Positions 21,164 through 64,000 are shown, counted from the first letter of the stretch. The stretch: DNA of 64,000 nucleotides from Pseudomonadota bacterium (GCA_016711215.1 JADJTL010000001.1:1910-65909), one strand, 5' to 3'. Notes: a model not told the origin generated them from the letters alone. Numbers and translations: made by a program.

Positions 21164-21591
<428 letters not shown>

Positions 21592-36955: not shown

Positions 36956-38637
36956 CTATTTCGGTGGGTTGCGGCCGCGGGGGCGGGATGGGGGGCGGCG
37001 GCCGGGCTGGCCGGGGTGGCTCGTTTTCGACGAGGGCAGGGGCTCAGGCTGCCTTTTAGGGCGAGGTCCTCGCGTGGCCTCGCCCTCAGCGGCCTCGCCC
37101 TCAGCGCCCGTGCTGCTGGTCTTCGCGCCGGCAAAGAGGCTACAGGCGGGGTTGTGGGTCTCTTCGTGGTGGGCAAAGCCGAGGCTGCGGAGCAGCTCGA
37201 CGAAGGCGCGGCGGGCGGCGGCGTCGAGCTGCAGGCCGAGCAGCACCCGGCCGTAGTCGGCGCCGTGGTTGCGGTAGTGGAAGAGGCTGATGTTCCAGCG
37301 GCCGCCCATCTCGCGCAACAGGCCGAGCAGGGCGCCGCGGCGCTCGGGGAACTCGACCCGCCAGAGGGTCTCGTCGCGCAGCCCAGGGGCGTGGCCACCG
37401 ACCATGTAGCGAATGTGCAGCTTGGCGGTCTCGTTGTCGGTCAGATCGACGACGCCGTAGCCCTCGGCGACGAGGCGGGCCGCCAGCGCCTCGCGCTCGG
37501 TCCGACCCTCGCTCAGCTCGACGCCGACGAAGACCTGAGCCCGGGTCGCGTCGTGGTAGCGGTAGTTGAACTCGGTGACGCTGCGCTCGCCGATCGCGCG
37601 GCAGAAGGCGAGGAAGCTGCCCGGCCGTTCGGGGATGCTGACGGCGAAGATCGCCTCCCGCTCCTCACCGAGCTCGGCGCGCTCGGCGACGTGGCGCAGC
37701 CGGTCGAAGTTCATGTTGGCGCCGCTCTCGATCGCTACCAGCGCGGCGCCGCGCAGGCGCTCGCGCGCGACGTATTTCTTCAGCCCGCGAGGGCCAACGC
37801 GCCAGCCGGCTCGGCGATGGTGCGGGTGTCCTCGAAGAGATCCTTGATCGCGCCGCAGGTCTCGTCCGTGCTCACCAGCAGCACCTCGTCCACCACGCGC
37901 CGCGCGAGGCGGAAGGTCTCGCGGCCGACCTGTCGGACGGCGACGCCGTCGGCAAAGGGGCCGACGCGGTCGAGCGTGACCCGCCTGCCGGCGGCGAGGG
38001 CGCGCGAGAGGGTCGGGGCGTCGTCGGGCTCGACGCCGATCACGCGCGTCTCCGGGCGTACGAACTTGATATAGGCGCCGACGCCGGCGATCAGCCCGCC
38101 GCCGCCCACGGGCACGAAGACCGCGTGCAGCGGGCCGCTGTGCTGGCGCAACAGCTCCATGCCGATGGTGCCCTGGCCGGCGATCACGTCGAGGTCGTCG
38201 AAGGGATGCACCAGGGTCAGCCCGCGCGCCTGGGCCAGCCGCTGCGCATGCGCGCCAGCCTCGTCGAAGCTGTCGCCCTCGAGCACGATCGTGGCGCCGA
38301 GCGCCTGCACCGCCTGTACCTTGATCGTCGCCGTGGTGCGCGGCATCACGATCAGGGCCTCGAGCCCGAGCTCGCGCGCGGCCAGCGCGACCCCTTGGGC
38401 GTGGTTGCCGGCGGAGGCGGCGATGACGCCGCGCCGGCGTTGCGCGTCGTTGAGCTGGACGATCTTGTTGTAGGCGCCGCGGAGCTTGAAGGAGAAGACC
38501 TGCTGCAGGTCCTCGCGCTTGATCAAGACGCGGTTGCCGAGGCGGCGTGAGAGGCGCGGCGCGGGGCTCAGCGGGCTCTCGCTGGCGACCTCGTAGACGC
38601 GGGCGCGGAGGATGCGTTCGATCATTCGATTGAGCAT
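36956..38637 (-). pseudogene. ilvA: threonine dehydratase (biosynthetic, IlvA) with apparent single-base frameshift near 37786
   Basis: PLP domain (38637..37780, ends ...TIAEPAGALALAG*) and regulatory ACT-like half (from 37786, LKKYVARERLRGAALVAIESGANMNF...) are in different frames. Together they match IlvA end to end. The DNA reads gcgggcTGAagaaa where gcgggcCTGaagaaa is expected. A ~60-aa low-complexity C-terminal tail is dubious. Confidence 0.75.
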
Positions 38638-38745
38638 CGGTGGAGCATACGGCGCGCGCCGCTGAGCGCGCCAGCGAGCTGTGGCGCGGCAGGCGCCGGG
38701 CGCGATCGGTCGCGCCATCGCTGGACGGGCTGCTCGAAGGGGCTG

Positions 38746-45930: not shown

Positions 45931-46000
45931 CAGGGCTGATTGCGCAGGGCTGATTGCGCAGGGCTGATTGCGCAGGGCTGATTGCGCAGGGCTGATTGCG
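45931..46000. repeat. 14-bp tandem repeat (CAGGGCTGATTGCG) x5 plus a partial copy at 46052-46064 just upstream of the moxR ATG
   Basis: Direct reading. Perfect copies. Shares the CAGGGCTGA core with the glnB-upstream repeat. Confidence 0.9.
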
Positions 46001-46075
46001 GCGCGCCGCGGCGCCGTGCTAGCTAGGCGCGCGTCTGGGTCTCAAGCGGGCGGGCTGATTGCGAGGGAAGAGGGC

Positions 46076-47061
<986 letters not shown>

Positions 47062-47065
<4 letters not shown>

Positions 47066-48027
47066 TCGACCGCGAGCTGCTGCGCAGGATTCGCAAGATC
47101 GAGATCTACACCGGTCGGCTGGTCAACGATCAGCTCGCGGGGCAGTACCACAGCGTCTTCAAGGGCCGCGGGATGGCCTTCTCGGAGGTGCGTCAGTACC
47201 AGCCTGGCGACGATATCCGCCTGATCGACTGGAACGTCAGCGCGCGGATGAACGACGTCTACGTCAAGCTCTTCAGCGAGGAGCGCGAGCTGACGGTGAT
47301 GCTCCTCGTCGACATGAGCGCCTCGAGCGCCCTCGGCAGCCAGCCGAGCAGCAAGCGCGCCCTGACGGCGGAGGTGGCCGCGACCTTCGCGTTCTCGGCG
47401 ATCAAGAACAACGATCGGGTCGGCTTGATCATCTTCAGCGATGGCGTCGAGCGCTTCGTCCCGCCGAAGAAGGGTCGCAAGCACGTCCTGCGCGTGATCA
47501 GCGAGATCCTCAGCTACCGACCGCGGCGGATGGGCACTGATCTGGCCGCGGCGCTCGGTTACCTCGGTCGCGTGGTGCCGCGGCGTTGTGTGGCCTTTCT
47601 GCTCAGTGACTTCGTCGGCGACGCCGAGCTCCCCTTGCCCGCGCGTGATCTTGCCGCGGCGCCGGATCGGCACGCCGCGAGCGTGGCGGGCGGCGCGGCG
47701 GTGTCCCGGATGGAGCGAGCGTGGCGGGTGATCGCACGGCGCCACGACCTGATCCCGGTGGCGATCAACGATCCGCTCGACCAGTCGCTGGCCGGGCTCG
47801 GCATCGTGCGCTTGCTCGACGTCGAGACCGGTGAGCTGCTGACCTTTGACAGCGCCGGGCCGGAGGCGGCGGCGTTTGCTCGCCACATGCGCCGCGCGCG
47901 GCAGGAGCGGCAGGCCTTCTGGCGCCGCCTCGAGCTCGATGGCATGGAGCTCTCGACGGCAGAACCCTATCTCAGCACGCTGGTGGCGTTCTTTCGCCGG
48001 CGGCAGCTGCGGCTCCGGCACGGATGA
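47062..48027 (+). CDS. DUF58 domain protein (vWA-like partner of MoxR)
   Basis: GQYHSVFKGRGMAFSEVRQYQPGDDIRLIDWN signature. GTG overlaps the moxR stop. Confidence 0.8.
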
Positions 48028-49064
48028 GCCGGCGAGGGCCTCAGCCGCGGTGGTGGCCGCGCTTCTGCCTCGTGGTGCTGCTGGCTGGCGCTGGCGCCGC
48101 GCCGGTGCGTGCGGCCGCGCCCGATGCGGGAACGACGACGGCGGCGCCGAGCTGGGCGCCGAGTCTGACGATGACCATGCGGCCCTCGCATGCCCATGTC
48201 GGTGACCCGCTGACGGTGACGCTGGTAGCGCGCTGCCCGCAGGGCGTCGCCGTCAACCTGCCGCTGCAGCTCACCTTGGGCGATTTCGTCGAGCTCGGGC
48301 GCAGTGAGTCGAGCAGCGAGCCGACGCCGGGCGCCGCCGCCGCGCCGCGCGTGCAGACCTTCAGCCTGCGCCTCGCTGCCTACAAGCTCGGCACCCTGAC
48401 CTTGCCGGCGTTGCCGGTGACGGCGATCGGCAAGGGCGGCGAGTTGCTGACGCTGCGGACCGAGCCGAGGTCGGTGCGCATCAGCAGCGTGATGGCCAAC
48501 GAGCCGAACCCGCGGCTCAAGGCCCTCGAGCCGCCGGTCGTCGTCTATCGTCGCACCTGGTGGTTGCTCTACCTCGTCGGCGGTGTGTTGGCCGCCGCGG
48601 CGAGCGCCGCCCTCAGCGTGCTGGCTTATCGGCGACTCCAGGCGCGACGCCAGCAGCGACCGCCGCCGCAGCCCTTGCCCGCGCATCAGCAGGCGCTCGA
48701 GCGCCTCGCCGCGCTGCCGATCGACCCGTGGCTCGCCGAGCAACGGCAGAAGACGCTCTACGCTGCGCTGTCGGAGATCCTGCGCGCCTATCTCGGGGCT
48801 CGCTGGGGCTTCGAGGCCCTCGAGATGACCACGAGCGAGGTCCAGACGGCGCTGATCCTGCGCCTCGTGCCTGCGGAGCAGCGCGCGCGCGTGCAGGGGC
48901 TTTGTCAGGTCTGTGACCTGGTGAAGTTCGCCAAGCTCCAGCCGGAGGATCAGGCCGCGCGTCAGGCGGTGGCCGAGGTCGAGGCGATCGTGCGCGTGAT
49001 GGCGGCGAGCGCGGAGGCCGGCCTGCGGCCAGCGACCGCGCCGATCGCGGCGGTGGCGCCGTGA
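48024..49064 (+). CDS. hypothetical membrane-anchored protein (DUF4381-like, Bat-operon associated)
   Basis: Signal peptide plus a central TM helix (WWLLYLVGGVLAAAASAALSVLAY). Synteny between DUF58 and BatA. Start overlaps the previous stop (ATGA). Confidence 0.55.
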   Translation: MSRRGPQPRWWPRFCLVVLLAGAGAAPVRAAAPDAGTTTAAPSWAPSLTMTMRPSHAHVGDPLTVTLVARCPQGVAVNLPLQLTLGDFVELGRSESSSEPTPGAAAAPRVQTFSLRLAAYKLGTLTLPALPVTAIGKGGELLTLRTEPRSVRISSVMANEPNPRLKALEPPVVVYRRTWWLLYLVGGVLAAAASAALSVLAYRRLQARRQQRPPPQPLPAHQQALERLAALPIDPWLAEQRQKTLYAALSEILRAYLGARWGFEALEMTTSEVQTALILRLVPAEQRARVQGLCQVCDLVKFAKLQPEDQAARQAVAEVEAIVRVMAASAEAGLRPATAPIAAVAP

Positions 49065-50200
49065 GCCGCTCGACGAAGGGGCAGGACCTGCCCGAGGCGG
49101 CGCCGGCCGTGACCGCGCGGCGTGCGCCAGGCCCCTGGGGGTTGCTGCTGACCGTGCTTGCTGCGGTCGTGGCGCTGCTGGGTTGGGCGCTTTCGTCGGC
49201 CGGACAATTCTCCTTCGGTCGGCCCTGGGCGCTCTTGCTGCTGCTCGTGGCGCTGCCGCTGGCCTACTGGCTGCTCTTCGTGCTCCTGCCGCGGCGTGGC
49301 GCGCATCTGCGCGTCTCGAGCACGAGGGTGCTCGGGCGACTGCGGCCGGGTCCGATGGCGCGGCTCTTGCCTCTGCCTGGGGTGCTGCGGCTGGTGCTCT
49401 TGGCCTTGCTCATCGTGGCGTTGGCGCGCCCGCAGACGCGCGAGCGTGGCGGCGCGATCGAGGTCGAGGGGATCGACATCGTCGTCGCCCTCGACCTCTC
49501 GAACAGCATGGAGGCCGACGACCTGGTCCCCAATCGGCTGGAGGCCGCCAAGCGCGTGTTGGACGGCTTCATCAGGCGGCGCCGCAGCGACCGGCTCGGC
49601 CTGGTCGTCTTCGGTCGCGAGGCCTACACCTATTGCCCACTGACCCTCGACTACTCGGTCTTGATCAACCTGCTCGGCGGCGTGCAGCTCGGGCTGATCG
49701 ACGGCGCGGCGACGGCGATCGGCAATGGTCTCGGGCTCGCGCTGGCGCGGCTGCGGCCGAGCGATGCGAAGAGCCGTGTCGTGATCCTGCTGACCGACGG
49801 CGACAACAACGCCGGCAATCTCGCACCGCGCGAGGCAGCGCGCTATGCGCGCGACATGAAGGTCAAGGTCTTCACGATCCTGATGGGGCAGCACGCGCCG
49901 CCGCGCGGCGCGGGGGCTGATCCGCTGGCCGGATTAGGGCGGTCGTCGCAGCGGCTTCCGGCGAATCCAGCGCTGCTGGAGTCGATCGCGCGCGAGACGG
50001 GAGGCCGCGCCTTCCTGGCGACAGATCGTGGCGCCCTCGAGCAGACCTTCGAGACGATTCTCAGCGAGCTCGATCGCACGACGCGGCGCGATGTGGCAGC
50101 GTTGCACCGCGATGCGCAGCAGCCCTTCCTCGCGCTGGCGCTGCTCTTACTCTTGCTGGAGGCCGCCTTGCGCCTGACGCGCCTGCGCGAGCTGACCTGA
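49061..50200 (+). CDS. VWA domain membrane protein BatA-like
   Basis: Two N-terminal TM helices, then a vWA MIDAS motif (DIVVALDLSNSM...LTDGDNN). Confidence 0.8.
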   Translation: MSRSTKGQDLPEAAPAVTARRAPGPWGLLLTVLAAVVALLGWALSSAGQFSFGRPWALLLLLVALPLAYWLLFVLLPRRGAHLRVSSTRVLGRLRPGPMARLLPLPGVLRLVLLALLIVALARPQTRERGGAIEVEGIDIVVALDLSNSMEADDLVPNRLEAAKRVLDGFIRRRRSDRLGLVVFGREAYTYCPLTLDYSVLINLLGGVQLGLIDGAATAIGNGLGLALARLRPSDAKSRVVILLTDGDNNAGNLAPREAARYARDMKVKVFTILMGQHAPPRGAGADPLAGLGRSSQRLPANPALLESIARETGGRAFLATDRGALEQTFETILSELDRTTRRDVAALHRDAQQPFLALALLLLLLEAALRLTRLRELT

Positions 50201-50205
50201 GGACG

Positions 50206-51237
50206 ATGATGCGTTTCGCTGAGCCCTCGCTGCTCTGGTTGCTCTTGGCGGTACCGGCGCTGATCGTCGGCTTGGCCTTGCGTTTTGGCTGGCGGCGTCA
50301 GGTCCTCGCGCGCCTCGGGGACGCCGGGCCGCTCGCGCGCCGGCTGAGCCCGCTGAGCCATGGGCGCCGGCTGGCGAAGAGCGCGGCGCTGGTGCTGGGG
50401 CTGGCCTTGCTCGTGCTGGCCTTGGCGCGGCCGCAGGCGGGTGAGCGCACGACCCTCGCCCCGCAGCTCGGGCTCGATCTCGTCGTCGCGCTCGATCTCT
50501 CCAAGAGCATGCTGGCGCGTGACGCCTTTCCCAGCCGCATCGAGCGGGCAAAGGCCGAGCTCGGTCGGCTGATCGATCGGCTGCGGGGCGATCGCCTCGG
50601 GCTCGTCCTCTTCGCGGGCTCGACGCTGACCTATCCCCTGACCACGGACTACGCGGCCGCCAAGCTCTTCCTCCGCGACGTGGGGCCGGCTGACATGCCG
50701 CGCGGCGGCACGGCGATCGGTCAGGCCGTGGTGGCGGCGACGCGGCTACTCGGCGCCGTGCGCGGTCACGGCCCGCCGCGGGCGCAGGTCATCGTGGTGC
50801 TGACCGACGGCGAGGACCACGAGAGCGAGCCCCTGGCCGCGGCGCGCGAGGCCGCCCAGCGCGGGATCCGAATCTTCACCGTCGGCATCGGATCGCGCTC
50901 CGGGGAGCCGGTGCCTCAGCTCGACGCGCGCGGGCAGATCGTCGGCTATCTGGAGCATGAGGGTCGCCCCGTCGCGAGCCGACTCGACAGCACGACGCTG
51001 AAGGAGATGGCGTCGCTGACCCGCGGGCGTTACCTCGAGATGGAGCCGCAGCACTTCGCCGTCGAACCGGTGATCGCGGCCCTCGAGCGGCTCAATCGCT
51101 CCGCCGTCGACGCGCGGCTGGTGCGGCATTACGACGAGGTCTACGCCTTCTTCGTCTGGCCGGCCTTCTTGCTGCTCTTGGGGGAGCTCTGCCTCAGCGA
51201 GCGGCGGCGCTCGCGTCGCGAGGAGCAAGACGCATGA
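50206..51237 (+). CDS. VWA domain membrane protein BatB-like
   Basis: TM helices plus vWA MIDAS (DLVVALDLSKSM...LTDGEDHE). Confidence 0.8.
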   Translation: MMRFAEPSLLWLLLAVPALIVGLALRFGWRRQVLARLGDAGPLARRLSPLSHGRRLAKSAALVLGLALLVLALARPQAGERTTLAPQLGLDLVVALDLSKSMLARDAFPSRIERAKAELGRLIDRLRGDRLGLVLFAGSTLTYPLTTDYAAAKLFLRDVGPADMPRGGTAIGQAVVAATRLLGAVRGHGPPRAQVIVVLTDGEDHESEPLAAAREAAQRGIRIFTVGIGSRSGEPVPQLDARGQIVGYLEHEGRPVASRLDSTTLKEMASLTRGRYLEMEPQHFAVEPVIAALERLNRSAVDARLVRHYDEVYAFFVWPAFLLLLGELCLSERRRSRREEQDA

Positions 51238-52088
51238 TCCGATCCTCGCCTCACTTCGGCCGCGGGGGGCAGGCCCTGCTGCTGCTGCTCGTTCCCCTCT
51301 TCGGCGGCGCCTTCGATCTGCTGCGTACGCGGAACGCTGCGGTGGAGCGTGGCAACGCCGAGCTCGCCGCCGGTCGAGCCAAGGAGGCGCTGGCGGCCTA
51401 CGACGAGGCGCTGGCGGCGCAGCCCGACGCCCAGGGAGTCCACTACAACCGCGGGGTCGCGCTGCACCGGCTCGGTCAACACGACGCGGCGCGGCAGGCG
51501 CTGCTGCGTGCGACCCAGGGTGAAGACCGCGCGCTGCGCGCCAAGAGCTTCTTCAACCTCGGGGACGTGGACTTCGAGCAGAAGCGCTTCGCGGAGTCCG
51601 CGACGGCCTTCCAGCAGGCGCTGCGTCTCGACCCGCGCCATCGCGCGGCGAAGTGGAACCTCGAGCTGGCGTTGCGGCGTCGCGAGCAGGAAGAAAAGAA
51701 GCAGCGTCAGGACAAGAAAGGCGAGCAGCAGAAGCCCGAGCAGAAAAAGGGCGAGCAGCAGAAGAACGAACAGAAAAAAAGCGAGCAGCAGAAGCCCGAG
51801 CAGAAGCCCGACGCGAAGAAGCAGCCGCAAGCGACGCCCAAGGGGGAAAAGGGCGCCCGGCCAGATCCGCAGCAGCCACCACGCGAGCCCGCGGCGACGC
51901 CCTCGCCGGCACCGCGCGAGCAGCCGGCGCAAGCGGCAGAGCGCGCTGCCAAGACGGCCGCGGAAGAACAGGCCGAGCGCGAGCGCCAGCAGGTGCTGGA
52001 TGCCCTTGATCGTGGCGACAAGAACGTGCAGCGTGAGCGCGCGCGGCTGCAGCAGGGGCTCTATCGGCCGCCGCTGAAGGATTGGTAG
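51234..52088 (+). CDS. TPR-repeat protein BatC-like with K/E/Q-rich low-complexity linker
   Basis: TPR motifs followed by the (KGEQQKPEQK)n region encoded by DNA tandem repeats at ~51716-51810. Confidence 0.7.
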   Translation: MIRSSPHFGRGGQALLLLLVPLFGGAFDLLRTRNAAVERGNAELAAGRAKEALAAYDEALAAQPDAQGVHYNRGVALHRLGQHDAARQALLRATQGEDRALRAKSFFNLGDVDFEQKRFAESATAFQQALRLDPRHRAAKWNLELALRRREQEEKKQRQDKKGEQQKPEQKKGEQQKNEQKKSEQQKPEQKPDAKKQPQATPKGEKGARPDPQQPPREPAATPSPAPREQPAQAAERAAKTAAEEQAERERQQVLDALDRGDKNVQRERARLQQGLYRPPLKDW

Positions 52089-52089
52089 C

Positions 52090-53964
52090 GTGAGCTCCGG
52101 CGCATGGGCTTTTCGGTCAGCGCGGCGAGCGCGTGCGCGTGGCTCGCGCGTCGTGGGGGCGGCGGCCGCGTTGGCGTTGCTCTGCCTGGCTGCCGCGGGC
52201 GCGCTGGCCCAGGGCGTCAGCCTCCGCTTGACGGCCGACCGGCACATCACCGCCGTGGGGGAGCCTGTCGTCGTCACGGTGGAGCTTGCCGTCGAGGGGC
52301 GCGCGGACGTCGAGTTCCTCGAGCCCACGCTCCGCGGTTGGCGCCTGCTGAGCAACAGCCTCGTCAGCCGCAACATCGAGCTGATCAACTGGCAGATGCG
52401 GCGGCGTGAGACGCGCGTCTACGAGGTGGCGGCGCTGCAAGCGGGGACCCTGGCCTTGGGGCCGGCGGGCGTGCGCCTGGCGCAGCGCGTCGTGCGTTCG
52501 AATACGGTGCAGGTGGAGGTGCGCCCGGCAGGGGCGAACACGCCGGCGGGCGCGCCGGCCGCGCTGCCGACACCGAGCGCCAGCGCCCGCGGGGGCGCGC
52601 AATCGGGCGGCTTCATCGTCGCTCAGCCCTCCCTGACGCGGGTCTACGTCGGCCAGCAGCTCGTGGTCACCTGGCGGCTCTACACGCAGTCGGAGCTGCT
52701 CTCCTTTGGCATCGAGACCCGGCCGACGACCGATGGCTTCTGGAGCGAGGACGCAGGCTCGCCGCGGCGGCTCGACCTGGAGCGGGTCGTGCTCGATGGC
52801 CAGGTCTACGGCACCGCCTTGCTGCAGCGCTCGGTGCTCTTTCCGCAGCGCGCGGGGTCGTTGCCGATCGGGCCCTTCGAGGCCCAGCTGCAGACGGCCG
52901 ACACGCTGGGGGAGGGCCCGCTGCTGCGCCGGGCCGACGGCCTGACGATCGAGGTCTTGGCGCTGCCCGCCGCGGGCCGGCCGGCGGGCTTCGCGGACGC
53001 CAACGTCGGCCACTTCGCGCTGGCGGCCCTGGTCGACCGGGAGGCAGTGGAGGTCGGCCAGGCGGTGACCTTGCGCTTGATCGCCCGCGGCAGCGGGAAC
53101 CTGCGGCAGCTCGTCTTGCCCGTGCTCCCTGCGCTAGCCGGTGTGCGGGCCTTCGAGCCGAAGCTCACCGACCGGCTGGAGGCGGGCGAAGCGGGGTTGC
53201 AGGGTGAGAAGGAGGTCGCCTACCTCCTGCTGCCCCAGCAACCCGGCGAGCTGCGGATCCCGGCCCTTGCCCTGGCCTACTTCGATCCTGAGGCGCGCGC
53301 CTATCGCGTGGCGCAGACCAAGCCGCTGCGCCTGCGCGTCACCGGACAGGCCGCTGCTGCCTCGCGCGGCGCCCCTTCGGCTCAGCCGGCGAGCAACGTG
53401 CTCGGTCCGGATATCCGACCGCCGCGCCCGGCCGAGGCGCTGCAGGATCGCTTGCCACGCGCGCCGATCAACGCCCTCTATCTCGGCCTGGCCGCCCTGC
53501 CCCTCTTGTTGCTGGCCTTGGGATGGGGGGCGGAGCGGGTGCAAGCCGCGCGCAGCGCCCCGACGACGCGCGCGCGCCAGCGGGCGATGCAGCGGCGTGT
53601 GCGGACAGGGTTGCGCCAGGCTCGCGCGGCCGCAGCGCAGGGGCGGCCAGCGGCGGAGGCCTCTGCCTTGCTGGTCGCGGCGCTGCATGAGCAGCTCGAT
53701 CATCGGCTCGGGCTGCGGGCCGGCGGGCTGACGCGCGAGGCGCTCGCTCAGGCGCTGCGCGGCCAGGGGGTCGGCGACGAGCTCGCCGCCGCCGTCGGCG
53801 CGTTGCTCGATCAATGCGATCAGGCGCGCTTCGCCCCCGGCGCTGCGCCGCAGGCGCTCGGCGTCGCCACCGTCGACGCGGCGGAGGCGGTCATTCGGGC
53901 CCTTGCAGCGGGCACCGCGGCGGCAGGCGCAAGCCGCGATCCCCGCGATGAGGAGCGCTCATGA
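52090..53964 (+). CDS. BatD-like (oxygen-tolerance) protein
   Basis: GTG start, signal peptide, ~620 aa, C-terminal TM. Position in the operon supports the call. Confidence 0.65.
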   Translation: MSSGAWAFRSARRARARGSRVVGAAAALALLCLAAAGALAQGVSLRLTADRHITAVGEPVVVTVELAVEGRADVEFLEPTLRGWRLLSNSLVSRNIELINWQMRRRETRVYEVAALQAGTLALGPAGVRLAQRVVRSNTVQVEVRPAGANTPAGAPAALPTPSASARGGAQSGGFIVAQPSLTRVYVGQQLVVTWRLYTQSELLSFGIETRPTTDGFWSEDAGSPRRLDLERVVLDGQVYGTALLQRSVLFPQRAGSLPIGPFEAQLQTADTLGEGPLLRRADGLTIEVLALPAAGRPAGFADANVGHFALAALVDREAVEVGQAVTLRLIARGSGNLRQLVLPVLPALAGVRAFEPKLTDRLEAGEAGLQGEKEVAYLLLPQQPGELRIPALALAYFDPEARAYRVAQTKPLRLRVTGQAAAASRGAPSAQPASNVLGPDIRPPRPAEALQDRLPRAPINALYLGLAALPLLLLALGWGAERVQAARSAPTTRARQRAMQRRVRTGLRQARAAAAQGRPAAEASALLVAALHEQLDHRLGLRAGGLTREALAQALRGQGVGDELAAAVGALLDQCDQARFAPGAAPQALGVATVDAAEAVIRALAAGTAAAGASRDPRDEERS

Positions 53965-54746
53965 GCTTGCCTTCGACGGCGCGGCGCCTGGCCTGGCTAC
54001 TGCTTGGCGCCCTCTTGCTGGTGGCGCCAAGCGGCCTGCGGGCGGAGACGGTGGACGCAGCGTATCGTCGGGCGCTGGCCGACTACTACGGTGGCCGCTA
54101 TGCGGCCGCGGCGCAGGCGCTCGAGCGGCTGGCCGCGCTGCCGCTGCGGCACGAGGCGCTCTTCTACAACCTCGGCTGCGCTTACTATCGCCTCGGACGC
54201 CTCGGTCCCGCGGTCTACGCCTTCGAGCGGGCCCTGGCGCTGGAGAGCGGCTCTGATGATGCGCGGCATAACCTGCGGCTCGCGCGCCAGCGTGCGGCCC
54301 AGGGCGGACGCGACGTGCTGCGTGGCGTCAGCGATCAGCCGGCGTGGCAGCGCGCCGCCAGCGTCTTCGAGCTGCGGACCGCGTGGTGGCTGACGCTCAT
54401 CCTGTGGTGGGCCGTGCTGGCCGGCTTCGTGCTCGTGCGTCGGACCGCGCCTGGGCCCGCCCGCGCCGGATTGGTCGCGGGCAATGCGCTGCTCGGCTTG
54501 CTGCTGTTGGCCAGCGTCGGGCTGCTGGGGGCGCGGATCCACCTCGAACGCAGTGTGCGCTACGGTATCGTGCTTCCCGACAAGCTGGCGGTGCGCGAAG
54601 GCCCAGAGGCGGCAGCCCGCAGCGCCTACAGCCTACACGCGGGGCTGCGCGTGCGCCTCGTCGGCGAGGTCAGCGGCTGGCGCCGCCTGCGCCTCGGCAA
54701 CGGCCTCGAAGGCTGGGTGCGCAGCGACGCCATCGGCCCGATCTGA
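53961..54746 (+). CDS. BatE-like TPR/SH3 membrane protein
   Basis: Signal, TPR motifs (ALFYNLGCAYYRLGRLGPA), TM helices, and a C-terminal SH3-like segment (GWVRSDAIGPI). Confidence 0.65.
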   Translation: MSLPSTARRLAWLLLGALLLVAPSGLRAETVDAAYRRALADYYGGRYAAAAQALERLAALPLRHEALFYNLGCAYYRLGRLGPAVYAFERALALESGSDDARHNLRLARQRAAQGGRDVLRGVSDQPAWQRAASVFELRTAWWLTLILWWAVLAGFVLVRRTAPGPARAGLVAGNALLGLLLLASVGLLGARIHLERSVRYGIVLPDKLAVREGPEAAARSAYSLHAGLRVRLVGEVSGWRRLRLGNGLEGWVRSDAIGPI

Positions 54747-55732: not shown

Positions 55733-56045
55733 CTCGAAGGCTCCTTCTCGGCCGGGTGGATTCCCGGACGCGTGCAAGGGGTTCTCCCCGGGTTCTCCCC
55801 GCATCGGGGCGCGGGCCTGAGTATTGCTCGGGCCGCCCGAGGGGGCGGAGGCCGCGATACCGACGGTCGACCCCTCGCGCCGGGCGCTCTCACGCAAGCA
55901 ATAGCCGGGCCAGCCAAGCGCCCCGCAGGGTATCGCGACCTTCGGCCAGCCGCCGGCCGCCGGAAGCCGGTCGGGTCTCCGTTTTTCGGCAGCCAGCCTC
56001 CTCCAACCGGTCGCCTCCAACGGAACGCCAGCGGCACGCCTGCGC

Positions 56046-56570
56046 TCAGAGCGGATCGCCTTGGAGGAAGACGAAGACCCGCGCGCGGACGCTCCGCTGG
56101 CTCTGCGTCGAGCTCGAGAGCGTCAGCTCGTTGCGCCCCGAGCGCAGCGTGGGAAGCGTGCCCTTTCGCGGGACGTTGTAGATTAGATCGCCCTTGAGGC
56201 CGTAAACGGGGCATGCGGAGGCCGACTCGAGCTCGAGGTAGGTGCTCGAGCCTATCTCCGTCAGAAAGGTCAAGGGCTCGCCGTTTACCGTGATCGACGG
56301 GTCAGTGATCTTCCCGGCTACCATCGCCAGCGCGCGGATCGGGCTCAGATACACGCGCACGGTCTTGCTCGGCGGTAGGTTGTTGAGCCAGAGGCTGAGC
56401 GTGGCGATCTGGTCGACGTGCACCGCCTCGCGGAAGACGTTGTAGGAGGCCCACCCCTCGGGCCATTGATAGTCGCTGTGGGCTGCCGATGCGGTCTCGA
56501 TCAGCTCGACGTAGCGCCAGGCGACAAAGTCGCCGACCGCCTCGCCGAGGCGGGCCTCGGGACTCGGTCG
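56046..56570 (-). pseudogene. 5'-truncated ORF fragment of unknown function abutting the IS remnant
   Basis: Minus-strand frame stays open from the stop at 56046 up to the IS-homology boundary, with no start codon before it. GC ~60%. Confidence 0.4.
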
Positions 56571-56809
56571 GCACCGTCGGCGACTCCTACGACAACGCCC
56601 TCGCCGAGTCGGTCATCGGCCCGTACAAGACCGAGCTCCTCCGCAAGCACAGCCCTTGGCGTCACGCCGAGGCCGTCGAGCTTGCCACCCTCGCCTGGTT
56701 CCACTGGTTCAACAACCGGCGCCTGCTCGAGCCTCTTGGCTGGGTGCCGCCGGCAGAGTACGAGCAAGCGTTCTACGAGGCTCAGGCTGCCCAAGGCAGG
56801 GCAGCCTGA
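56566..56809 (+). mobile_element. IS3-family transposase (OrfB/integrase core) C-terminal remnant
   Basis: GDSYDNALAESVIGPYKTELL...LATLAWFHWFNNRRLLEPLGWVPPAEYE matches the conserved YDNA..AESFF..LK.E...F.WI.WYN..R.H..LGY.SP.E.E end of IS3 transposases. No N-terminal part or start codon is present. Confidence 0.7.
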
Positions 56810-57048
56810 CTCAAGCAACCAAGTCTCCGGCGAACCCGGGGCGGTTCAGGGGCTGCAGCACACGGTCAACCTCCCGTGTGCTGCTGTGCGCCTCGTGGAC
56901 AGCAAGGCACGCCTGGCGAGGGGCAGCTCGGGCCAAGCCTGACCGTCCTACCTCCACCTCATTCAGGCCGCGCGCGGGGGGCGATCCGTGCTACCCAGGT
57001 AGCGCCGGTGCGGGCGGGTCGGCGGGCGAGCGCCTTGACGGGGGCTCT

Positions 57049-57119
57049 GGCCGATGACGCCGATGACGCCGATGACGCCGATGACGCCGATGACGCCGAT
57101 GACGCCGATGACGCCGATG
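57049..57119. repeat. perfect 9-bp tandem repeat (ATGACGCCG) x7, in frame at the start of the following ORF
   Basis: Direct reading. Each unit carries an ATG, encoding MTP repeats. Confidence 0.9.
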
Positions 57120-57851
57120 ACTCTGGCGGCCCTGACGATCGCCGAGCGCTTCTGTGGTCCGCCGGGAAGCGCCAACGGCGGGTACGTCTGCGGGCTGCTC
57201 GCAGAAGCGCTCGCCGGGCCGCAGGCCGGCCCGGTGCAGGTGCGGCTGCGGCGGCCGACGCCGCTGGCCGTCGAGCTGCGGGTCGAGCGGGACGAGCAGG
57301 GCGCCCGGTTGCTGCTTGGGACGGAGCTGCTGGTCGAGGCGCGCGCCGCAGACGAGGCCGCGCTGGCGGCCGTGGCGCCAGCCGACCTCCCCGACGGCGC
57401 GGCCCTGGTCGTCGCGGCTCGGCGCGCCAGCGGCCGTTTCAGCGGGCTGGACGCGCATCCCTATCCGAGCTGTTTCGTCTGTGGACCGCGGCGCCGGGTC
57501 GGCGACGGCCTGCGCATCTTCGCCGGACCAGGTCCGACGGGCGCTTGGGTGGCCGCGCCCTTCACCCCCGGAGCCGAGCTCGCTCTCGCCGACGGGGCTC
57601 TGCCGGTCCCGCTCCTCTGGGCGGCGCTCGACTGCCCCGGCTACTTCGCCGTCGCCGGCGCGGGAGAGGCGGCGCTGCTGGCCACGATGACGGCGGAGGT
57701 GCGCGCTGGCGCGGTGCGCGCGCTGGACGAGTGCGTCGTGGTGGGCTGGGCGCTCGGTGTGGAGGGGCGCAAGCGCCACGCGGCGACGGTGCTCTACGGC
57801 GCGGACGGCGCCCTCTGCGGTCGCTCGCGCCAGCTCTGGATCACCGTTTAG
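57054..57851 (+). CDS. hypothetical protein, possibly hotdog-fold thioesterase-like, with (MTP)7 N-terminal repeat
   Basis: ORF from the first ATG of the repeat array. Hotdog-like segments (ANGGYVCGLLAEAL; SCFVCGP). The family call is weak and the true start may be any of the 8 ATGs. Confidence 0.45.
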   Translation: MTPMTPMTPMTPMTPMTPMTPMTLAALTIAERFCGPPGSANGGYVCGLLAEALAGPQAGPVQVRLRRPTPLAVELRVERDEQGARLLLGTELLVEARAADEAALAAVAPADLPDGAALVVAARRASGRFSGLDAHPYPSCFVCGPRRRVGDGLRIFAGPGPTGAWVAAPFTPGAELALADGALPVPLLWAALDCPGYFAVAGAGEAALLATMTAEVRAGAVRALDECVVVGWALGVEGRKRHAATVLYGADGALCGRSRQLWITV

Positions 57852-57879
57852 CGCGCGCACGAGCGCGTGCCGTCAGCGC

Positions 57880-59076
57880 TCAGATGTCGTCGCCTCCGCC
57901 GACCTGCGGGCGGGCGCGCGGGCCGCGGCTCTGGCGCTGCGCGGGTGCGCTGGCCGCTGGCGCGGGCGCCGGCGCGGGGGGGGCTGCGCGCGGTGCTGCT
58001 GCTGCTGGTGGCGGTGCTGGTGCTGCTGCCGGTGCTGCTGCCGGTGCCGCCCGGGCGGGTTCTGTCGTGCCGGCGCTCGCGCCAACTTCGCCACCGGCTT
58101 CGGCGCCGCCCGCCGCACCCTCATCGGCAGCCTCGTCCTCGGCGGCCTGCAGGGCCGGATCGCTGACGGTCTGCTTGAGCTCCGGCCAGACCTCTTGCAG
58201 CAGGCCCTCGGAGACGTAGTAGAGCCCCTGGCGCTCGCCCGGCGTCGCAAAGAGCGTGACGTCGACGTTCTTGTTCAGCGCCCCATGCAGCGCACGGCAG
58301 TAGGCCTGCCACATGACGATGCTCTGACGCTTGCGGCCCCGGCCCGTGACCAAGGTCTGCTCCGGGCGTCCGAGCGCTTGCTCCATCCGGGCCTCGGGGC
58401 CAGGTGGCGCGAACGCGGCCTCGCCGAGGTGAAAGCCGACCCAATCGAGCTGATCCTGGTTGACGGCGTAGACCACCTTCGAAACCGCCGCCTGCTCGGC
58501 AGCCGTGGCCGCGTGGTACTCGAGGCTCTGGTCGCGCGCCCGAATCATCCGCGGCTTCGGCTCCGCGGGCAGCGCGCGAATGCTGTCGAGGGTCGCGTCG
58601 AGTCGTCGGCAGGTGGCGTCGTCGAGCGGTCGCAGCTTGACCACCCCCTCACCCTCGAGCCGGGTCAGGGTCGCGCTGGAATCGGTCGTCGCACCTTGCA
58701 GCCGGTGAAAGCTGCCGGCCAGCGCGCCCCGCGCCTTGAAGCGCTCCCCGCCGGTGCGGATCAGGCGCGCGACCTGTGCTACCGCTTCGGGACCCCTGAG
58801 GACCGCCAACCGCTCGTCATCGAGGAGCTTCCATTTGCCGGAGAGCAAGGGATCGGTCGCGCCAGTGCAGCTGACGTTGAGATAGGCGCGGAAGGTGTGG
58901 TCGGGCAGAAACTCGTGGCAGTGGACCGGCTTGCCGTCGTCGTCGACGAAGGCCCAGCGCCCGATCATCCACTCGGGCTTGCGGCAGCCGATAGCCGCCA
59001 GCAGCAGCGTGGCGACCAGCGCCCATCCGCATGCTCGAGCGCCTCGCGGCGCGCAACCCGTGCTTTGCTGCGTCAT
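57880..59076 (-). CDS. hypothetical lipoprotein with Ala/Pro-rich C-terminal tail
   Basis: Start MTQQSTGCAPRGARACGWALVATLLLAAIGC (signal plus lipobox). C-terminus is a ~70-aa A/P/G low-complexity region. Confidence 0.5.
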   Translation of the reverse strand: MTQQSTGCAPRGARACGWALVATLLLAAIGCRKPEWMIGRWAFVDDDGKPVHCHEFLPDHTFRAYLNVSCTGATDPLLSGKWKLLDDERLAVLRGPEAVAQVARLIRTGGERFKARGALAGSFHRLQGATTDSSATLTRLEGEGVVKLRPLDDATCRRLDATLDSIRALPAEPKPRMIRARDQSLEYHAATAAEQAAVSKVVYAVNQDQLDWVGFHLGEAAFAPPGPEARMEQALGRPEQTLVTGRGRKRQSIVMWQAYCRALHGALNKNVDVTLFATPGERQGLYYVSEGLLQEVWPELKQTVSDPALQAAEDEAADEGAAGGAEAGGEVGASAGTTEPARAAPAAAPAAAPAPPPAAAAPRAAPPAPAPAPAASAPAQRQSRGPRARPQVGGGDDI

Positions 59077-59271
59077 GGCCCCCTCCCGATCCTCGTCAAT
59101 CCCGGCAGCATACGCGAGGGCCCTGGGGCGCGTCGATTCTCTGGAGCTTGCCGTGGCCTCGGCGGTCGTGTCCTCGGCGTTGACAGCGGCGAGTTGAGCA
59201 AATGTAGGATAATTAACTACCAAGACGTACTCATCCTACAATTACCGCCACAACCGAGGTGGAGGTGAGCC

Positions 59272-59619
59272 ATGCTGGATCCCAGAGTCGACCGGCGCCG
59301 GCACGTGACCTACGTGACGCAGCATACCGAGTACCATTGCCGCGGCCGCGAATGCGTCGGCGTGCGCAACCGACGCACGGGCGAGTGGGTTCGCGACCAT
59401 GGGGCGCTGCGTGGGCGGCTGGCCGGAGCGACCGACGGTGGGAGCCCCGCGCTCGACGGCCCGCCCCTCGGCCTGCGCTTGCTCTTCGTCGGCCGCGAAG
59501 GCGTCCTGACCTCAAGGGTCGAGGCGATGCTGCGCCCGCCCAAGGAGGTGCTGGCGCGCTACGCCAGCCGCGCCGCCGCGGGTTCCATTCGCGGACCGAG
59601 CACAGCGGCCGGCGCCTAG
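59272..59619 (+). CDS. small hypothetical protein with His/Cys cluster
   Basis: 115 aa with HTEYHCRGRECVGVRNRRTGEWVRDH, a possible metal-binding ribbon. Preceded by an AT-rich operator-like region. Coding status is uncertain. Confidence 0.35.
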   Translation: MLDPRVDRRRHVTYVTQHTEYHCRGRECVGVRNRRTGEWVRDHGALRGRLAGATDGGSPALDGPPLGLRLLFVGREGVLTSRVEAMLRPPKEVLARYASRAAAGSIRGPSTAAGA

Positions 59620-60067
59620 CGGCCCGCCTTCGCCCCCGGGCGCTTCGGGGCTGAGCCACGAAGACGCGGCTCCGATCTTCTGCGCGAACTACACCGTCCA
59701 TAGTGGCTTGCGCAACGCCGAGCCGCGGCCGGGTGAGCGCGTCGAGGCGGGCAGGCTGCGCGCTAGGGCCGTGCTGCAGCACGCGCCCTAGCGCCCCCGC
59801 AGCGACGGGGTCCTCAGCTCGCGCCCCCATCCCGCGCCCCCATCCCGCGACCGGCGGGAGCCGCCGCGCGCACGCACTGGCGCTGAGACGCGCCGATCGT
59901 CGGCGCATGCCCGTGGCTGGCGGACGTCGACTCAGCCTTGCCGTCCTCCAAGGCCCTGTTCTCAAATGCTGTTTTCAGAATGCACTCGACGAAGAACCTT
60001 TTTGCTTGAGTGAAACATGATTTCCCGCGTACAAATAGTGCACGGCCTATAACGCAGGAGGTGCCTC

Positions 60068-61492
60068 ATGTCAGCGCGTCACTTCGGCTCGGTAGGGAAA
60101 GGGCGTGGCCGGTTCGGGGTGGGGCGGCTGGGGGCATTTGGAGCGCTGGGGGTGCTGGGGGCGTTGGTGGCGTTGGTGGGGCTGGCGGGGCTGGCGGGGT
60201 GCGAGACGCTGGCGGATGACAGCAGCCTGACGCCGCCGCCGGCGGTGCGGTCGCAGGCGGCGAGCAGCAACGCGATGAACGCGATGAACGCGATGAACGC
60301 GATGAACGCGATGAACGCGATGAACGCGATGAACGCGATGAACGCGATGAACGCGATGAACGCGATGAACGCGATGAACGCGATGAACGCGATGAACGCG
60401 ATGAACGCGATGAACGCGATGAACGCGATGAACGCGATGAACGCGATGAACGCGATGAACGCGATGAACGCGATGAACGCGATGAACGTCGGCGACCTGC
60501 GCATCCCCTCGACGACGCTGACGGACCTCTCGAAGTACACCTTCAACCAGGCCGAGGTGCTCTGCCCGGCGACGCGGCTGGGGCCGCTGACGGTGGCGGG
60601 GCAGAGCGCCAACGTGGTGCTGCCGCGCTGGTTGGTGCTCAAGAGCCAGTTCGAGCGCGTGCGCGAGGCCTGCTGCGCGAGCCCGCCCTGCGGCACGAGC
60701 TGCGCGCCGCTGACGGTGGCGATCGACGAGGACCTGGACGCCAACGGCAGCTTCAACCCGGCGGGGGGCGTGGACCAGACGGTGACCTACGAGGTCTTCA
60801 GCGCCATCGCGCTGGCGTGCGCGGACAAGGCCTACCGGCCCTTCCTGCTCCATCCGATCAGCGGCCCCGAGGTGCAGGCGCTGGACGCGGCGGGCAAGAT
60901 CCCGACCTTCACGACCTACTTCCGCTATATGTGCATCCAGAGCTGGGATGAGACGCAGCACAAGGCCGTCTACCGCTGCGGCAAGGGCCGGGTGGCCGAT
61001 GGCATCAGCGGCTACGCGGTGAAGGCGGGCACCAACTCCCCGCGACCGGTCTACCTGTCGAGCCTGACCTGGGGCGGCAACGTCTGGGATAAGCACTTCC
61101 AGTTCCTCAACGCGCACCTGGCCTCGATCGTCGAGAGCAAGCAGGGCACGGTGCCGGTTTCGGGCTACGCGCTCGACTACGCCTGGAACCTCAACCCGCG
61201 CGATGTCCACGCGGGCACCTCGACCAAGAAGGAGGCCGACTACCTGGCCGCCGTGGCGCTGAAGACGGCGACGAGCCGCAGCGGCGTGGCCGTCAGCCCC
61301 TACAACCGCGCCAACCTGACGGGCGGCCAGAGCTTCAGCGCCAATGAGCTGAACCAGGGCGAGACGGGCTACCGGACCTATCCCGACCTGGCCTCGAAGG
61401 GCACCCTCAACGGCATCGCCATCGACCTCAAGGTCTCCCCTGGTACACGCAGAACTGCAAATGGGCCTCGGACTGGGGCCTGCCCGAGCTGA
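60068..61492 (+). CDS. lipoprotein with (Ala-Met-Asn)24 repeat and a Cys-containing central domain; likely N-terminal part of a frameshifted giant RCC1 protein
   Basis: AGGAGG RBS. Signal and lipobox LAGLAGC, then 24 perfect AMN units, then a ~300-aa domain (CCASPPCGTSC...). This frame ends at 61492, but the frame-1 continuation is RCC1-rich. Confidence 0.6.
   Translation: MSARHFGSVGKGRGRFGVGRLGAFGALGVLGALVALVGLAGLAGCETLADDSSLTPPPAVRSQAASSNAMNAMNAMNAMNAMNAMNAMNAMNAMNAMNAMNAMNAMNAMNAMNAMNAMNAMNAMNAMNAMNAMNAMNAMNVGDLRIPSTTLTDLSKYTFNQAEVLCPATRLGPLTVAGQSANVVLPRWLVLKSQFERVREACCASPPCGTSCAPLTVAIDEDLDANGSFNPAGGVDQTVTYEVFSAIALACADKAYRPFLLHPISGPEVQALDAAGKIPTFTTYFRYMCIQSWDETQHKAVYRCGKGRVADGISGYAVKAGTNSPRPVYLSSLTWGGNVWDKHFQFLNAHLASIVESKQGTVPVSGYALDYAWNLNPRDVHAGTSTKKEADYLAAVALKTATSRSGVAVSPYNRANLTGGQSFSANELNQGETGYRTYPDLASKGTLNGIAIDLKVSPGTRRTANGPRTGACPS
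60272..60487. repeat. perfect 9-bp tandem repeat (GCGATGAAC) x24
   Basis: Direct reading: 216 nt with no variant copies. Encodes AMN on the plus strand and FIA on the antisense. Confidence 0.95.
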
Positions 61493-64000
61493 CGCCGCAG
61501 TCGGTCGCCGGCGCCTCGGTCTTCCCGATCGGCAGTGCCAGCAACCAGGCCCTGCTCGGCCTCAACATCGGCGACACCACCCCGCGCCGCTGCCCCAGCT
61601 TCGCCACCTGCGAGCCCGGCCAGAGCTGCTGCATCGGCAAGTTCTCGCTGGGCCATTATCATTCCTGCGCGATCCGCACCGACTCTACCGTCTGGTGCTG
61701 GGGCGCGGATGGCTTCATGATTTTCCTCTCGAAGGCTAACGGCATGCTCGGTCAGGGCGAGGTGGTGCCCACGACCCCGGTCGCTCTGCCGGTCCTCGAG
61801 GGCGCGAACCAGGCGCGCTTCAGCGGGGCGATCGACGTCGCCCTGGGCAGCGAGCACACCTGCGTGCGGCGCAAGGACGGCAGCGTCTGGTGCTGGGGCT
61901 ACAACGTTTCGGGTCAGCTCGGCGATGGCTCGACGATGACGCGGCTGAGCCCGGTGCGCGTCACGGGCCTCGACGGCTCCGCCGTCGAGCAGCTCGTCGC
62001 GGGCTATGGTCATACCTGCGCGCGGCGCACCGACGGCAGCGTCTGGTGTTGGGGCAGCAACAGCTCGGGTGAGCTTGGCCAAGGCGATACGAACAATAGG
62101 ACGGTTGCGACTCGCGTGGGGGCGCTGGGCACCGCCGTTGTAGAGGTGGCGGCCGGATCCAGTCGAACCTGTGCGCGCCTCAGCGACGGTACCCTCTGGT
62201 GCTGGGGCGAGAACCGCTACCGCCAGGTGGGCGATGGGACGAGCACCAATCGGCTGGACCCGACGCAGGTGGTAGCCCTCGGCACGACGGTGCAGGCTGT
62301 CGCGATCGGCAACTACGGCAGCTTCGCGCTGCGCGCGGATGGGAGCCTCTGGGGCTGGGGCGCGACGTACCTTGGCACGCCTGACGGCGCGGGCATCGAC
62401 GGGATTCCCGCGGCGCTGAGCACGCTTGGCACGAACGTCGTGGAGGTCGGCGCTGGGATGATGCATGGCTGCGCGCGGCTGCGAGACAACACGGTTTGGT
62501 GTTGGGGCCTGAACAATCGCGGCCAGGTTGGCGATCGCACGATGAGTACACGCACCGTGCCGGTGCGCGTGACGACGCTCGGAACGGCGGCGGCGGAGCT
62601 CCAGGTGGGGGGTAACCACGCGTGCGCGCGACGGCTGGACGGCCAGCTCTGGTGCTGGGGAATGAACGAACAAGCGCAGCTCGGGGACGGCGTCTACATG
62701 AACGCCAACACGCCGCATGCGGTGCTCGGCCTGCAGTGTGAGTGCGGCGACGGCGTCTGCAGCCGTAGCGAGACCCGTGAGAGCTGCCCCGTCGACTGCC
62801 GCCAGGCAAGCTGCGGGGACGGGCAGTGCACGGGGACAGAGACCCACGCGACCTGCTCGCGTGACTGCCCGGCGCCCCCTCCAACGACGGCGCTCTCGCT
62901 GGGCGCTCAGTTCGGGTGCTCGCACCGCACGGATGGAAGCCTCTGGTGTTGGGGCAACGGGGCGATCGGCGCGGCGCGAAAGGAGCGCCTCAGCCCGGTG
63001 GCCATCACGACCTTGGGTAGCGGGGTGGTCGCGCTGGCGGAGGATGGCGTGGGGACCGGCTGCGCGATTCGCGCCGATCGTAGCTTGTGGTGCTGGGGAA
63101 CCGGCCCGCGGCTCGGCGATGGCTCGTCGGGCACGCGCACGACCCCGGCCCGCGTGACGGCGCTGGGTACCCAGGTCCTGCAGGTGGCGATTAGCGACTA
63201 CCATGCCTGCGCGCGTCGCAGCGATGGCACCATGTGGTGCTGGGGATCCGGCATGTATGGTGCCCTTGGCGACGGCTCGACGACCTCGAGCAGCGCGTCG
63301 CCGCTAGAGGTCACCGCCCTGGGCACGAGCGTGGCGGAAATCGGCGTCGGCATCTTTCAGAGCTGCGCGCGCCGCACGGACGGCAGCCTCTGGTGCTGGG
63401 GAACCTCAATTGGTGGCAATCTCGGTGACGGCACGACCCTCTCGCATGCGGCGCCCGCGAAGGTCACAGGACTGGGTACTGCCGTCATCGGTATCTCCTC
63501 CGGCGGCAGTCCAGCCTGTGCGCGCACGGCGGACGGTAGCCTGTGGTGTTGGGGCCCCAACCGCAACGGGAACGTCGGCGATGGCACGACGACGGAACGG
63601 TTCGTGCCGGTGCGCGTGACGACCCTCGGGACCTCCGTCGCGCAGATCGCCGAGGGCCCAGGGAGCCATAAGTGTGCGCGCCGCACGGATGGCACCCTCT
63701 GGTGCTGGGGCTGGAACGGCTATGGGCAGCTTGGCAATGGTGCGACCGACTTCTTGTGGGGTAACGGCTACCAGCAGCTCCGGCCCGTGCAGGTGACCAA
63801 CCTCGGCACCTCGGTGGTCGATGTCGCGGTGGGGAACACGCACACCTGCGCGCGCCGCAGCGACGGAAGCGTGTGGTGCTGGGGCCTGAACAATGGCAGC
63901 CAGCTCGGAACCGATGCCACGACGGAGCCCGTCTCGTCTATCCCACAGCGCGTGGCGCCCTGCGGCGACGGCATCTGCTCACTGCCCGAGCGGCAGAGCG
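61348..64000 (+). CDS. RCC1-repeat double beta-propeller protein (2 x 7 blades separated by CGDG-type Cys-rich linkers); no own start, continues past window end
   Basis: Frame-1 ORF is open from 61348 to 64000. It has fourteen W(C/G)WG RCC1 blades and two CGDGxC...C linkers at ~62740-62880 and 63961+. There is no ATG/GTG before the first blade. It joins the upstream ORF if one C is added to the C4 tract at 61437-61440. Confidence 0.7.

Follow-up and report, generated by a model that had tools for sequence, protein, structure and literature searches.

Introduction

In the Neisseria lipoproteins Lip/H.8 and in the azurin Laz, a lipobox is followed by a low-complexity tandem peptide array (AAEAP pentapeptides) and then by a globular domain, with the array encoded by an in-frame DNA tandem repeat whose copy number can change without loss of frame. 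RCC1-like (RLD) proteins are seven-bladed beta-propellers built from repeats of ~51 residues; bacterial RCC1-repeat proteins include Legionella effectors (PMC7157520) and MXAN_0889 of Myxococcus xanthus, detected in outer-membrane vesicles (PMC4158809). Here, we analyze a predicted lipoprotein gene in which both architectures meet, located at the end of a 64,000-nucleotide (nt) stretch of DNA from a Pseudomonadota bacterium (GCA_016711215.1, JADJTL010000001.1:1910-65909; "the window" hereafter refers to this whole stretch). As it stands, the gene is split between two reading frames by one missing base.

Compared to these described systems, the locus combines shared and distinct features. As in Lip/H.8 and Laz, its array follows a lipobox, precedes a globular domain, and is repeated in frame; in this family, however, the unit is a triplet in which Asn is followed by a small and a hydrophobic residue (NAM, NSL, NAI, NAV; NAPM in Archangium), it occurs 9-30 times, the same uncharacterized domain always accompanies the array, and there is no sequence relation to the Neisseria proteins. 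Likewise, the C-terminal part resembles RLD proteins in its seven-bladed propellers, its ~51-residue repeats, and scores far above Pfam thresholds, but here two tandem propellers are joined by a Cys-rich CGDG linker, nearly every blade carries two conserved Cys (C..R....G..WCWG), and a lipoprotein signal, a triplet array, and a 383-amino-acid (aa) domain precede the propellers. What is known in this protein is thus a pair of bona fide RCC1-like propellers and a lipoprotein signal of standard pattern; what is new is an undescribed N-terminal module.

One gene broken at a short C run

On the plus strand, the frame-2 open reading frame (ORF) 60068-61492 encodes 474 aa (ORF list and translation), and an exact-product look-up of this ORF returned no record. 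Frame 1 is open in translation from 61348, after a TGA at 61345, to base 63999, and its earliest ATG, GTG, or TTG is an ATG at 61717, already within the first RCC1 blade; the preliminary description of the window had indeed noticed that this frame has no start codon. It had also proposed that one C added at 61437-61440 would restore a single protein of >1300 aa, and translation of the sequence edited in this way gives an uninterrupted product of at least 1311 aa that reads ...IDLKVSPWYTQNCKW... at the junction. Among intact paralogues, L004 is the closest; it is 88% identical and has a 1358-codon open frame. By homology with L004, the window lacks only ~34 residues of a Cys-rich tail, and we therefore estimate the full product at ~1,345 aa.

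The break can be placed by comparison with homologues. A related locus (L001, 83% nucleotide identity to the window) from the metagenome-assembled genome (MAG) Aved_18-Q3-R54-62_MAXAC.289 (GCA_016702545.1, hereafter "the related MAG") reads CTCAAGGTCGCCCCCTGGTAC where the window reads CTCAAGGTC-TCCCCTGGTAC, i.e., the DNA alignment places a gap of 1 nt in the window precisely at the C run, with junction codons GTC GCC CCC TGG TAC in the paralogue and GTC TCC CC- TGG TAC in the window. High-scoring segment pairs from tblastn leave frame 2 and resume in frame 1 at 61438-61441, with 100% identity, and the protein of the L001 locus (P0001, 86% identical) reads ...IAIDLKVAPWYTQNCPWAADWGL... and runs straight on into the RCC1 blades. 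In at least 16 related loci from four genomes, the conserved 383-residue domain (hereafter "N-domain") and the start of blade 1, i.e., query positions 1 to ~407, lie in one frame (tblastn). Even P0003, which is 39% identical, aligns past the break of the window for another ~65 residues and reaches a conserved RCP motif; this is a complete 480-aa gene without RCC1, followed by a convergent gene. Past the break, all 884 codons of the window are open, with a G+C content at third codon positions (GC3) of 0.85 and intact blade motifs. Taken together, these comparisons show that 60068 onward is a single gene with a one-base deletion at this position.

Two independent genes, i.e., one for a 474-aa lipoprotein and another for an RCC1 protein translated on its own, would be the literal reading of a sequence that yields two ORF calls as it stands, and some stand-alone N-domain proteins lack RCC1 (P0003, L032, and L034). 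We nevertheless consider this reading scarcely conceivable, as the alignments already contradict it: frame 1 offers no start ahead of the ATG inside blade 1, the break cuts the conserved N-domain ~65 residues short of its end, and every intact RCC1-bearing relative has RCC1 fused to the N-domain. The frameshift interrupts a conserved domain that spans merged residues 140-522, and a model of two independent genes is excluded. The preliminary description had named homologues with a separate, self-starting RCC1 gene as the observation that would speak against a single gene; we looked for such homologues among the relatives and found none.

Read as one gene, 60068 to beyond 64000 would encode a cell-envelope lipoprotein of ~1,345 residues that comprises, in order, a signal peptide with a lipobox Cys, a Pro-containing spacer, (Ala-Met-Asn)24, the 383-residue domain, a propeller, the CGDG Cys-rich linker, a second propeller, and a Cys-rich tail (Table 1).

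Table 1. Coordinates of the features of the lipoprotein gene in the window.
Feature	Position	Strand	Evidence and remarks
Shine-Dalgarno AGGAGG	60056..60061	+	7 nt before ATG, read directly; GGAGGTGCCTCATGTC block kept in paralogue L001
Lipoprotein signal peptide, 44 aa, then lipobox Cys45 (codon 60200-60202)	60068..60202	+	PROSITE PS51257-style match ALVGLAGLAGC
Pro-containing spacer of 23 aa, ETLADDSSLTPPPAVRSQAASSN	60203..60271	+	Translation; LTPPPAVR motif kept in paralogues
24 exact tandem GCGATGAAC units, (Ala-Met-Asn)24	60272..60487	+	Regular-expression count
Conserved 383-residue N-domain, no known family or fold, split by the frameshift	60488..61632	+	Frame 2 to 61440, then frame 1
C4 run, one base fewer than in homologues (frameshift site)	61437..61440	+	Alignment with L001; tblastn frame switch
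Premature TGA stop of frame 2	61490..61492	+	17 codons past the frameshift; ORF list, translation
First seven-bladed RCC1-like beta-propeller	61633..62736	+ (frame 1)	Pfam RCC1, RCC1_2, WD40_RLD; seven WCWG/WGWG motifs, merged aa 542-861
Cys-rich linker CECGDGVCSRSETRESCPVDCRQASCGDGQCTGTETHATCSRDCP, then Pro-rich stretch	62737..62889	+	Translation; module also in L004, L013
Second seven-bladed RCC1-like beta-propeller	62890..63954	+	WD40_RLD; seven WCWG motifs, merged aa 959-1269
Start of C-terminal Cys-rich tail (APCGDGICSLPERQS...), truncated where the window ends	63955..64000	+	L004 continues ...APCGDGICSLPELQSGGCAADCTATCGDCVCDGVLEGRRELPGRLCGG, then stop

Cause of the missing base

The missing C, i.e., a C5 run read as C4, most likely results from an error in long-read consensus or assembly, an explanation that sequence patterns elsewhere in the window make probable. 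A second gene, ilvA (36956-38745, minus strand), is also broken by one missing base, at ~37783-37795: its PALP-domain ORF (PALP 7-274 of 295) stops at 37783 after ...AEPAGALALAG, and the Thr_dehydrat_C domain (E 2.3e-46) resumes in another frame as GLKKYVARE..., with the coding strand at the break reading GCG GGC TGA AGA AAT where GCG GGC CTG AAG AAA is expected. All 120 of the 120 best-scoring ilvA homologues listed have both domains in one protein, and ilvA adjoins intact ilvBN and leuABCD. We compared ~40 other ORFs of the window with Pfam; their domain matches, full length in most cases, gave no hint of a disruption (argCJBD, glnB-glnA, amtB, leuABCD, ilvBN, the MoxR/Bat operon, and others). 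We favor an assembly error because the window holds two single-base deletions, the frames downstream of both are intact, and one of them lies in a housekeeping gene beside intact pathway partners. In that case, the protein would be produced at full length in the living cell.

This pattern resembles the indels of MAGs from Nanopore R9-era data, in which a one-base deletion in a homopolymer produces an apparently split gene; the second break in ilvA fits this, as does the number of broken paralogues in the related MAG, which stems from such a pipeline (CANU assembly of Nanopore reads, polished with Racon, medaka, and Illumina reads; PMC8012365). There, tblastn shows 8 of the 21 paralogues frameshifted within the 1.2-kb N-domain at scattered sites (query positions 29, 60-100, 74-92, 185, 244, 272, 300, and 367-381), none of the 8 breaks falling at the window's position (~318). 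Homopolymer indels are reported to call for short-read polishing (PMC9262707).

Several observations weigh against an error. The platform is that of the related MAG and may not be that of the window, and unlike what such indels would lead one to expect, longer homopolymers (G10, G8) inside window ORFs leave their frames intact: the G10 run (43991-44000) lies in a GAF/histidine-kinase ORF and one G8 run (13124-13131) in a peptidase-like ORF, both in frame. This indicates good polishing, so that two leftover errors at short runs are somewhat unexpected. Further, with at least 20 paralogues, a real and recent pseudogene is plausible. Finally, homologue, exact-product, and JGI metagenome searches returned no same-strain contig over either break; a junction scan of JGI metagenomes allowing C4 or C5 gave 0 matches, and a search with the corrected ilvA junction for same-strain fragments gave a best match of 76% identity. 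The organism is present in a public metagenome run (SRR11674025), from which one Logan contig (L030) is 100% identical to window positions 20227-21972; a search with the window's P-II protein returned only two short Logan contigs, and L030 does not reach the C run. Because no reads or same-strain short-read contigs over 61437-61440 were found, we infer the error rather than demonstrate it. The window also has C8 (40755-40762) and a second G8 (57976-57983), and these runs, together with the G10 and G8 above, would be better candidates for slippage than C4.

Among the other causes, a real deletion in a recently inactivated paralogue, with the cell making a truncated 474-aa lipoprotein (array plus incomplete N-domain) or nothing stable, is possible yet rather unlikely. 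Given 21 loci in the related MAG, the loss of a single copy should cost little, some of the 8 broken N-domains there could be real, and the long homopolymers that stay in frame speak for a mostly accurate consensus. Still, 884 codons without a stop, coding-type GC3, and all 14 blade motifs mean that the inactivation would have to be very recent, and two very recent real frameshifts in 64 kb, including one in the single-copy ilvA, are less likely than residual assembly error. The C run could also be a slipped-strand contingency tract that switches the surface protein ON (C5) or OFF (C4) within the population, as in the phase-variable surface genes of Neisseria, Haemophilus, and Campylobacter, which share with this locus a frameshift in a coding mononucleotide run of a putative surface protein. 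C5 is in frame and C4 out of frame, as a switch would require, but the tract of 4-5 nt, one of 51 C/G runs of ≥4 nt in the gene and of 495 in the window, is short by the standard of phase-variable tracts known so far, usually ≥7 nt. Nor is the run conserved or variable in length at this site among relatives (GCCCCC in L001, GCGCCC in L004, GCCGGC in most paralogues, GCCGGCTGG), and the position is no hot spot for breaks, as paralogue frameshifts never fall there. We thus regard a phase switch as very improbable. A programmed -1 ribosomal frameshift at UCC CCU GG, by which the cell would make the full-length protein from the sequence as it stands, is harder still to credit: if tRNA-Pro slipped by -1 from CCU to CCC, the product would read precisely ...VSPWY..., as in homologues, yet the site GUC UCC CCU GGU has no canonical X XXY YYZ heptamer, homologues read the junction in frame without any shift, and no Rfam element was found in 56000-64000. 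Hence, of the three causes listed in the preliminary description, a sequencing or assembly error is now favored through the ilvA break and the related MAG, a recent pseudogene keeps a lesser share of the probability, and a slippage-based ON/OFF switch is disfavored.

A conserved N-terminal module

The domain behind the array, which the preliminary description had called Cys-rich, is present but larger than described, i.e., it is a 383-residue conserved domain that reaches past the frameshift to ~61632. Over its whole length, including the part past the frameshift, it is 40-89% identical to 16 relatives (alignment A2), with 60 invariant columns. Searches against Pfam, NCBIfam, and PDB sequences returned no match even at permissive thresholds. 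AlphaFold2, run with a 35-sequence alignment, predicted a mostly beta structure with a mean predicted local distance difference test (pLDDT) of 84.0 and a predicted template modeling (TM) score (pTM) of 0.86, and with pLDDT 92-96 for the residues around and after the break; an earlier model from a 7-sequence alignment (pLDDT 40.6) was discarded. When the model was compared to the PDB with Foldseek, the best match had an E of 0.25 and a TM score <0.15, and nothing was found among the viral structures of BFVD. Conserved Cys residues and the motifs LACADxAYRP, CGKG, AWNLNPxD, KTATNRxGVxVSPYN, ELNQCE, and RCP suggest that the N-domain may be a disulfide-bonded extracytoplasmic domain.

At the N-terminus, both the lipoprotein signal and the 24 Ala-Met-Asn units reported in the preliminary description were recovered, as a lipobox Cys45 and 24 exact GCGATGAAC units. 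The signal matches the regular expression for lipoproteins and holds Arg and Lys in its n-region; Cys45 lies later than the usual lipobox position of 15-35, and paralogues carry LLGC, LGCS, or AACGF at the matching place. Arrays of 9-26 units stand between lipobox and N-domain in 25 of 25 related genome loci, with a NAM-type unit in all of them except those of Archangium (L026 and L027), which carry NAPM/NAPL. Loci from JGI metagenomes extend this range to ~30 units (L032, L034, L036, and L047), and distant members have NAI, NSL, SMN, or NAV triplets (P0020, P0021, P0032, and L025) or NAPM/NAPL quartets. The conserved feature of the array is Asn together with a small and a hydrophobic residue, and not Met. 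Met-specific roles such as Cu(I) binding or oxidant scavenging were set aside, given that relatives swap Met for Leu, Ile, or Val and keep Asn and the small residue. Overall, these comparisons show a conserved module made up of lipobox, N-x-hydrophobic triplet array, and N-domain, to which the RCC1 propellers are a C-terminal addition specific to the lineage.

Many paralogues cluster at 24-25 units, and perfect GCGATGAAC arrays of up to 225 nt occur even where the adjacent N-domains are only 44-60% identical. This shared unit and clustered copy number suggest that the arrays evolve in concert, through slippage or gene conversion, and that their length is constrained. A scan of JGI metagenomes for five perfect units returned 18 loci, 8 of them with an N-domain directly after the array where downstream DNA exists; many arrays lie at contig ends, which indicates that they break short-read assemblies. 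Three short (AMN)5-7 arrays were found in unrelated JGI proteins, i.e., L031 (~4258-4374), L035 (6025-6069; a putatively enzyme-like protein), and L037 (654-698; a small helical protein), so that family membership cannot be read from the short motif alone. Pfam matches of the array to Plasmodium_HRP and Forkhead_N were below threshold and rejected as low-complexity noise. A literature search on the repeat or the N-domain found nothing, with spurious matches only for the repeat string. On the minus strand, two ORFs over the array (60071-61210 and 60079-60756) read (HRV)n and (FIA)n; they are not genes but arise from the repeat and the high GC content.

Tandem RCC1-like propellers

The frame-1 product matched three Pfam profiles far above their gathering thresholds: RCC1 (PF00415, 298.9 bits for a cut-off of 21.7, E 8e-91), RCC1_2 (PF13540, 313.8 bits for a cut-off of 22, E 2.6e-96), and WD40_RLD (PF25390, 437.8 bits for a cut-off of 150, E 4.7e-131). 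The best WD40_RLD stretch covers residues 532-870 of this product and profile positions 2-346 of 363, and corresponds to the second propeller. Fourteen [LVMI]W[CG]WG motifs follow each other at ~51 aa (48-65) except for a single 98-aa interval at the Cys-rich linker, i.e., 7+7 blades, and so bear out the 14 blades in two propellers that the preliminary description had counted. Its suggestion to search with TIGR02232 led nowhere for the CGDG linkers: no NCBIfam model matched the frame-1 product at E ≤ 0.01, and the isolated Cys-rich linkers matched no Pfam or NCBIfam family at E ≤ 10. Ran guanine nucleotide exchange factor (Ran-GEF) activity, or another defined RCC1-type activity, is not expected of a secreted lipoprotein, and the detection of the myxobacterial RCC1-repeat protein in vesicles fits an envelope or extracellular role.

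Distribution and C-terminal diversity of the family

Relatives of the N-terminal region are rare in protein databases. We retrieved 7 proteins among 5.8 billion clusters (4 in a first search), and a profile search of 1.84 billion representatives returned 69 members, 34 of them at E ≤ 1e-30; the architecture that the preliminary description had called unusual thus turns out to include a rare module. A scan of GTDB species representatives identified 25 loci, of which 21 belong to the related MAG (L004-L023 and L028, contigs JADJDT01...) and the others to Myxococcaceae, "Deltaproteobacteria", and Archangium MAGs. Several of these 21 loci are at contig ends or on contigs of 4-8 kb. Genes of this family appear to break or degrade assemblies, and are mostly absent from protein databases, presumably being annotated as pseudogenes. 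That only 7 proteins were found in the cluster search, though one genome holds 21 copies, is very likely because split genes are dropped as pseudogenes.

C-terminal parts vary between members, with types other than RCC1 assigned by eye from repeat motifs. Two RCC1 propellers are found in the window and L004, a combination of RCC1, BNR-like, and other repeats in L013, a Kelch-like region in L025 and P0008, FG-GAP-like repeats in P0023 and P0024, an unrelated ~200-aa domain in L032, L034, and L047, and no C-terminal part in P0003.

Proposed role and significance

Putative export and lipidation at Cys45 would tether the protein to a membrane, with the spacer and triplet array as a putative extended tether or stalk. 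We propose a polyproline-II-like or other extended stalk because the three-residue periodicity and the Pro-containing variant fit such a conformation, and a unit of 9 nt would let stalk length change in frame by slippage. The N-domain and the two propellers would then act as putative binding surfaces in the periplasm, at the cell surface, or on outer-membrane vesicles. The lipoprotein gene would belong to a large, diversifying family of paralogues, whose size and diversity suggest a repertoire of binding specificities.

Extending these proposals, we tentatively put forward, as a doubtful but testable possibility, that the module defines a new class of envelope proteins on a new fold, in which a stalk of defined length, tuned by in-frame slippage and held even between paralogues by concerted evolution, carries exchangeable propellers (RCC1, FG-GAP, Kelch-like, and BNR-like) as a repertoire of surface receptors. 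Such receptors could serve, e.g., prey, polymer, or kin recognition in Myxococcota; the family would have undergone a 20-fold expansion, and the frameshift would be incidental to it. The family deserves attention for its confidently modeled 383-residue domain without a sequence or structural neighbor among solved structures, for the triplet-repeat array that always precedes this domain, and for its fusion to exchangeable beta-propellers combined with a massive expansion in a wastewater/soil Myxococcota-like lineage. Should the array prove to be a length-tuned stalk and the paralogues a repertoire of receptors, the family would represent a new design for bacterial surface proteins. The frameshift itself is probably of no biological importance; it warns that long-read MAGs split genes, which pipelines then drop as pseudogenes.

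Genomic context

Synteny with the related MAG was not detected beyond a weak similarity of the MoxR/Bat genes to L005 and L016. Rfam gave no match in the region ahead of the lipoprotein gene, and no promoter was evident near the gene. The intergenic region between 59236 and 60067 is unusually long (~830 bp), and within it GCCCCCATCCCGC is duplicated in tandem (x2) at ~59823-59848; a single sigma-70-like match lies at 59213-59242. Further upstream, positions 45968-54746 hold an aerotolerance-type operon that encodes a MoxR AAA ATPase, a DUF58 protein, BatA/BatB VWA proteins, a TPR protein, BatD, and a TPR-SH3 protein; its weak protein-level similarity to the regions upstream of L005 and L016 is the only hint of a shared context.

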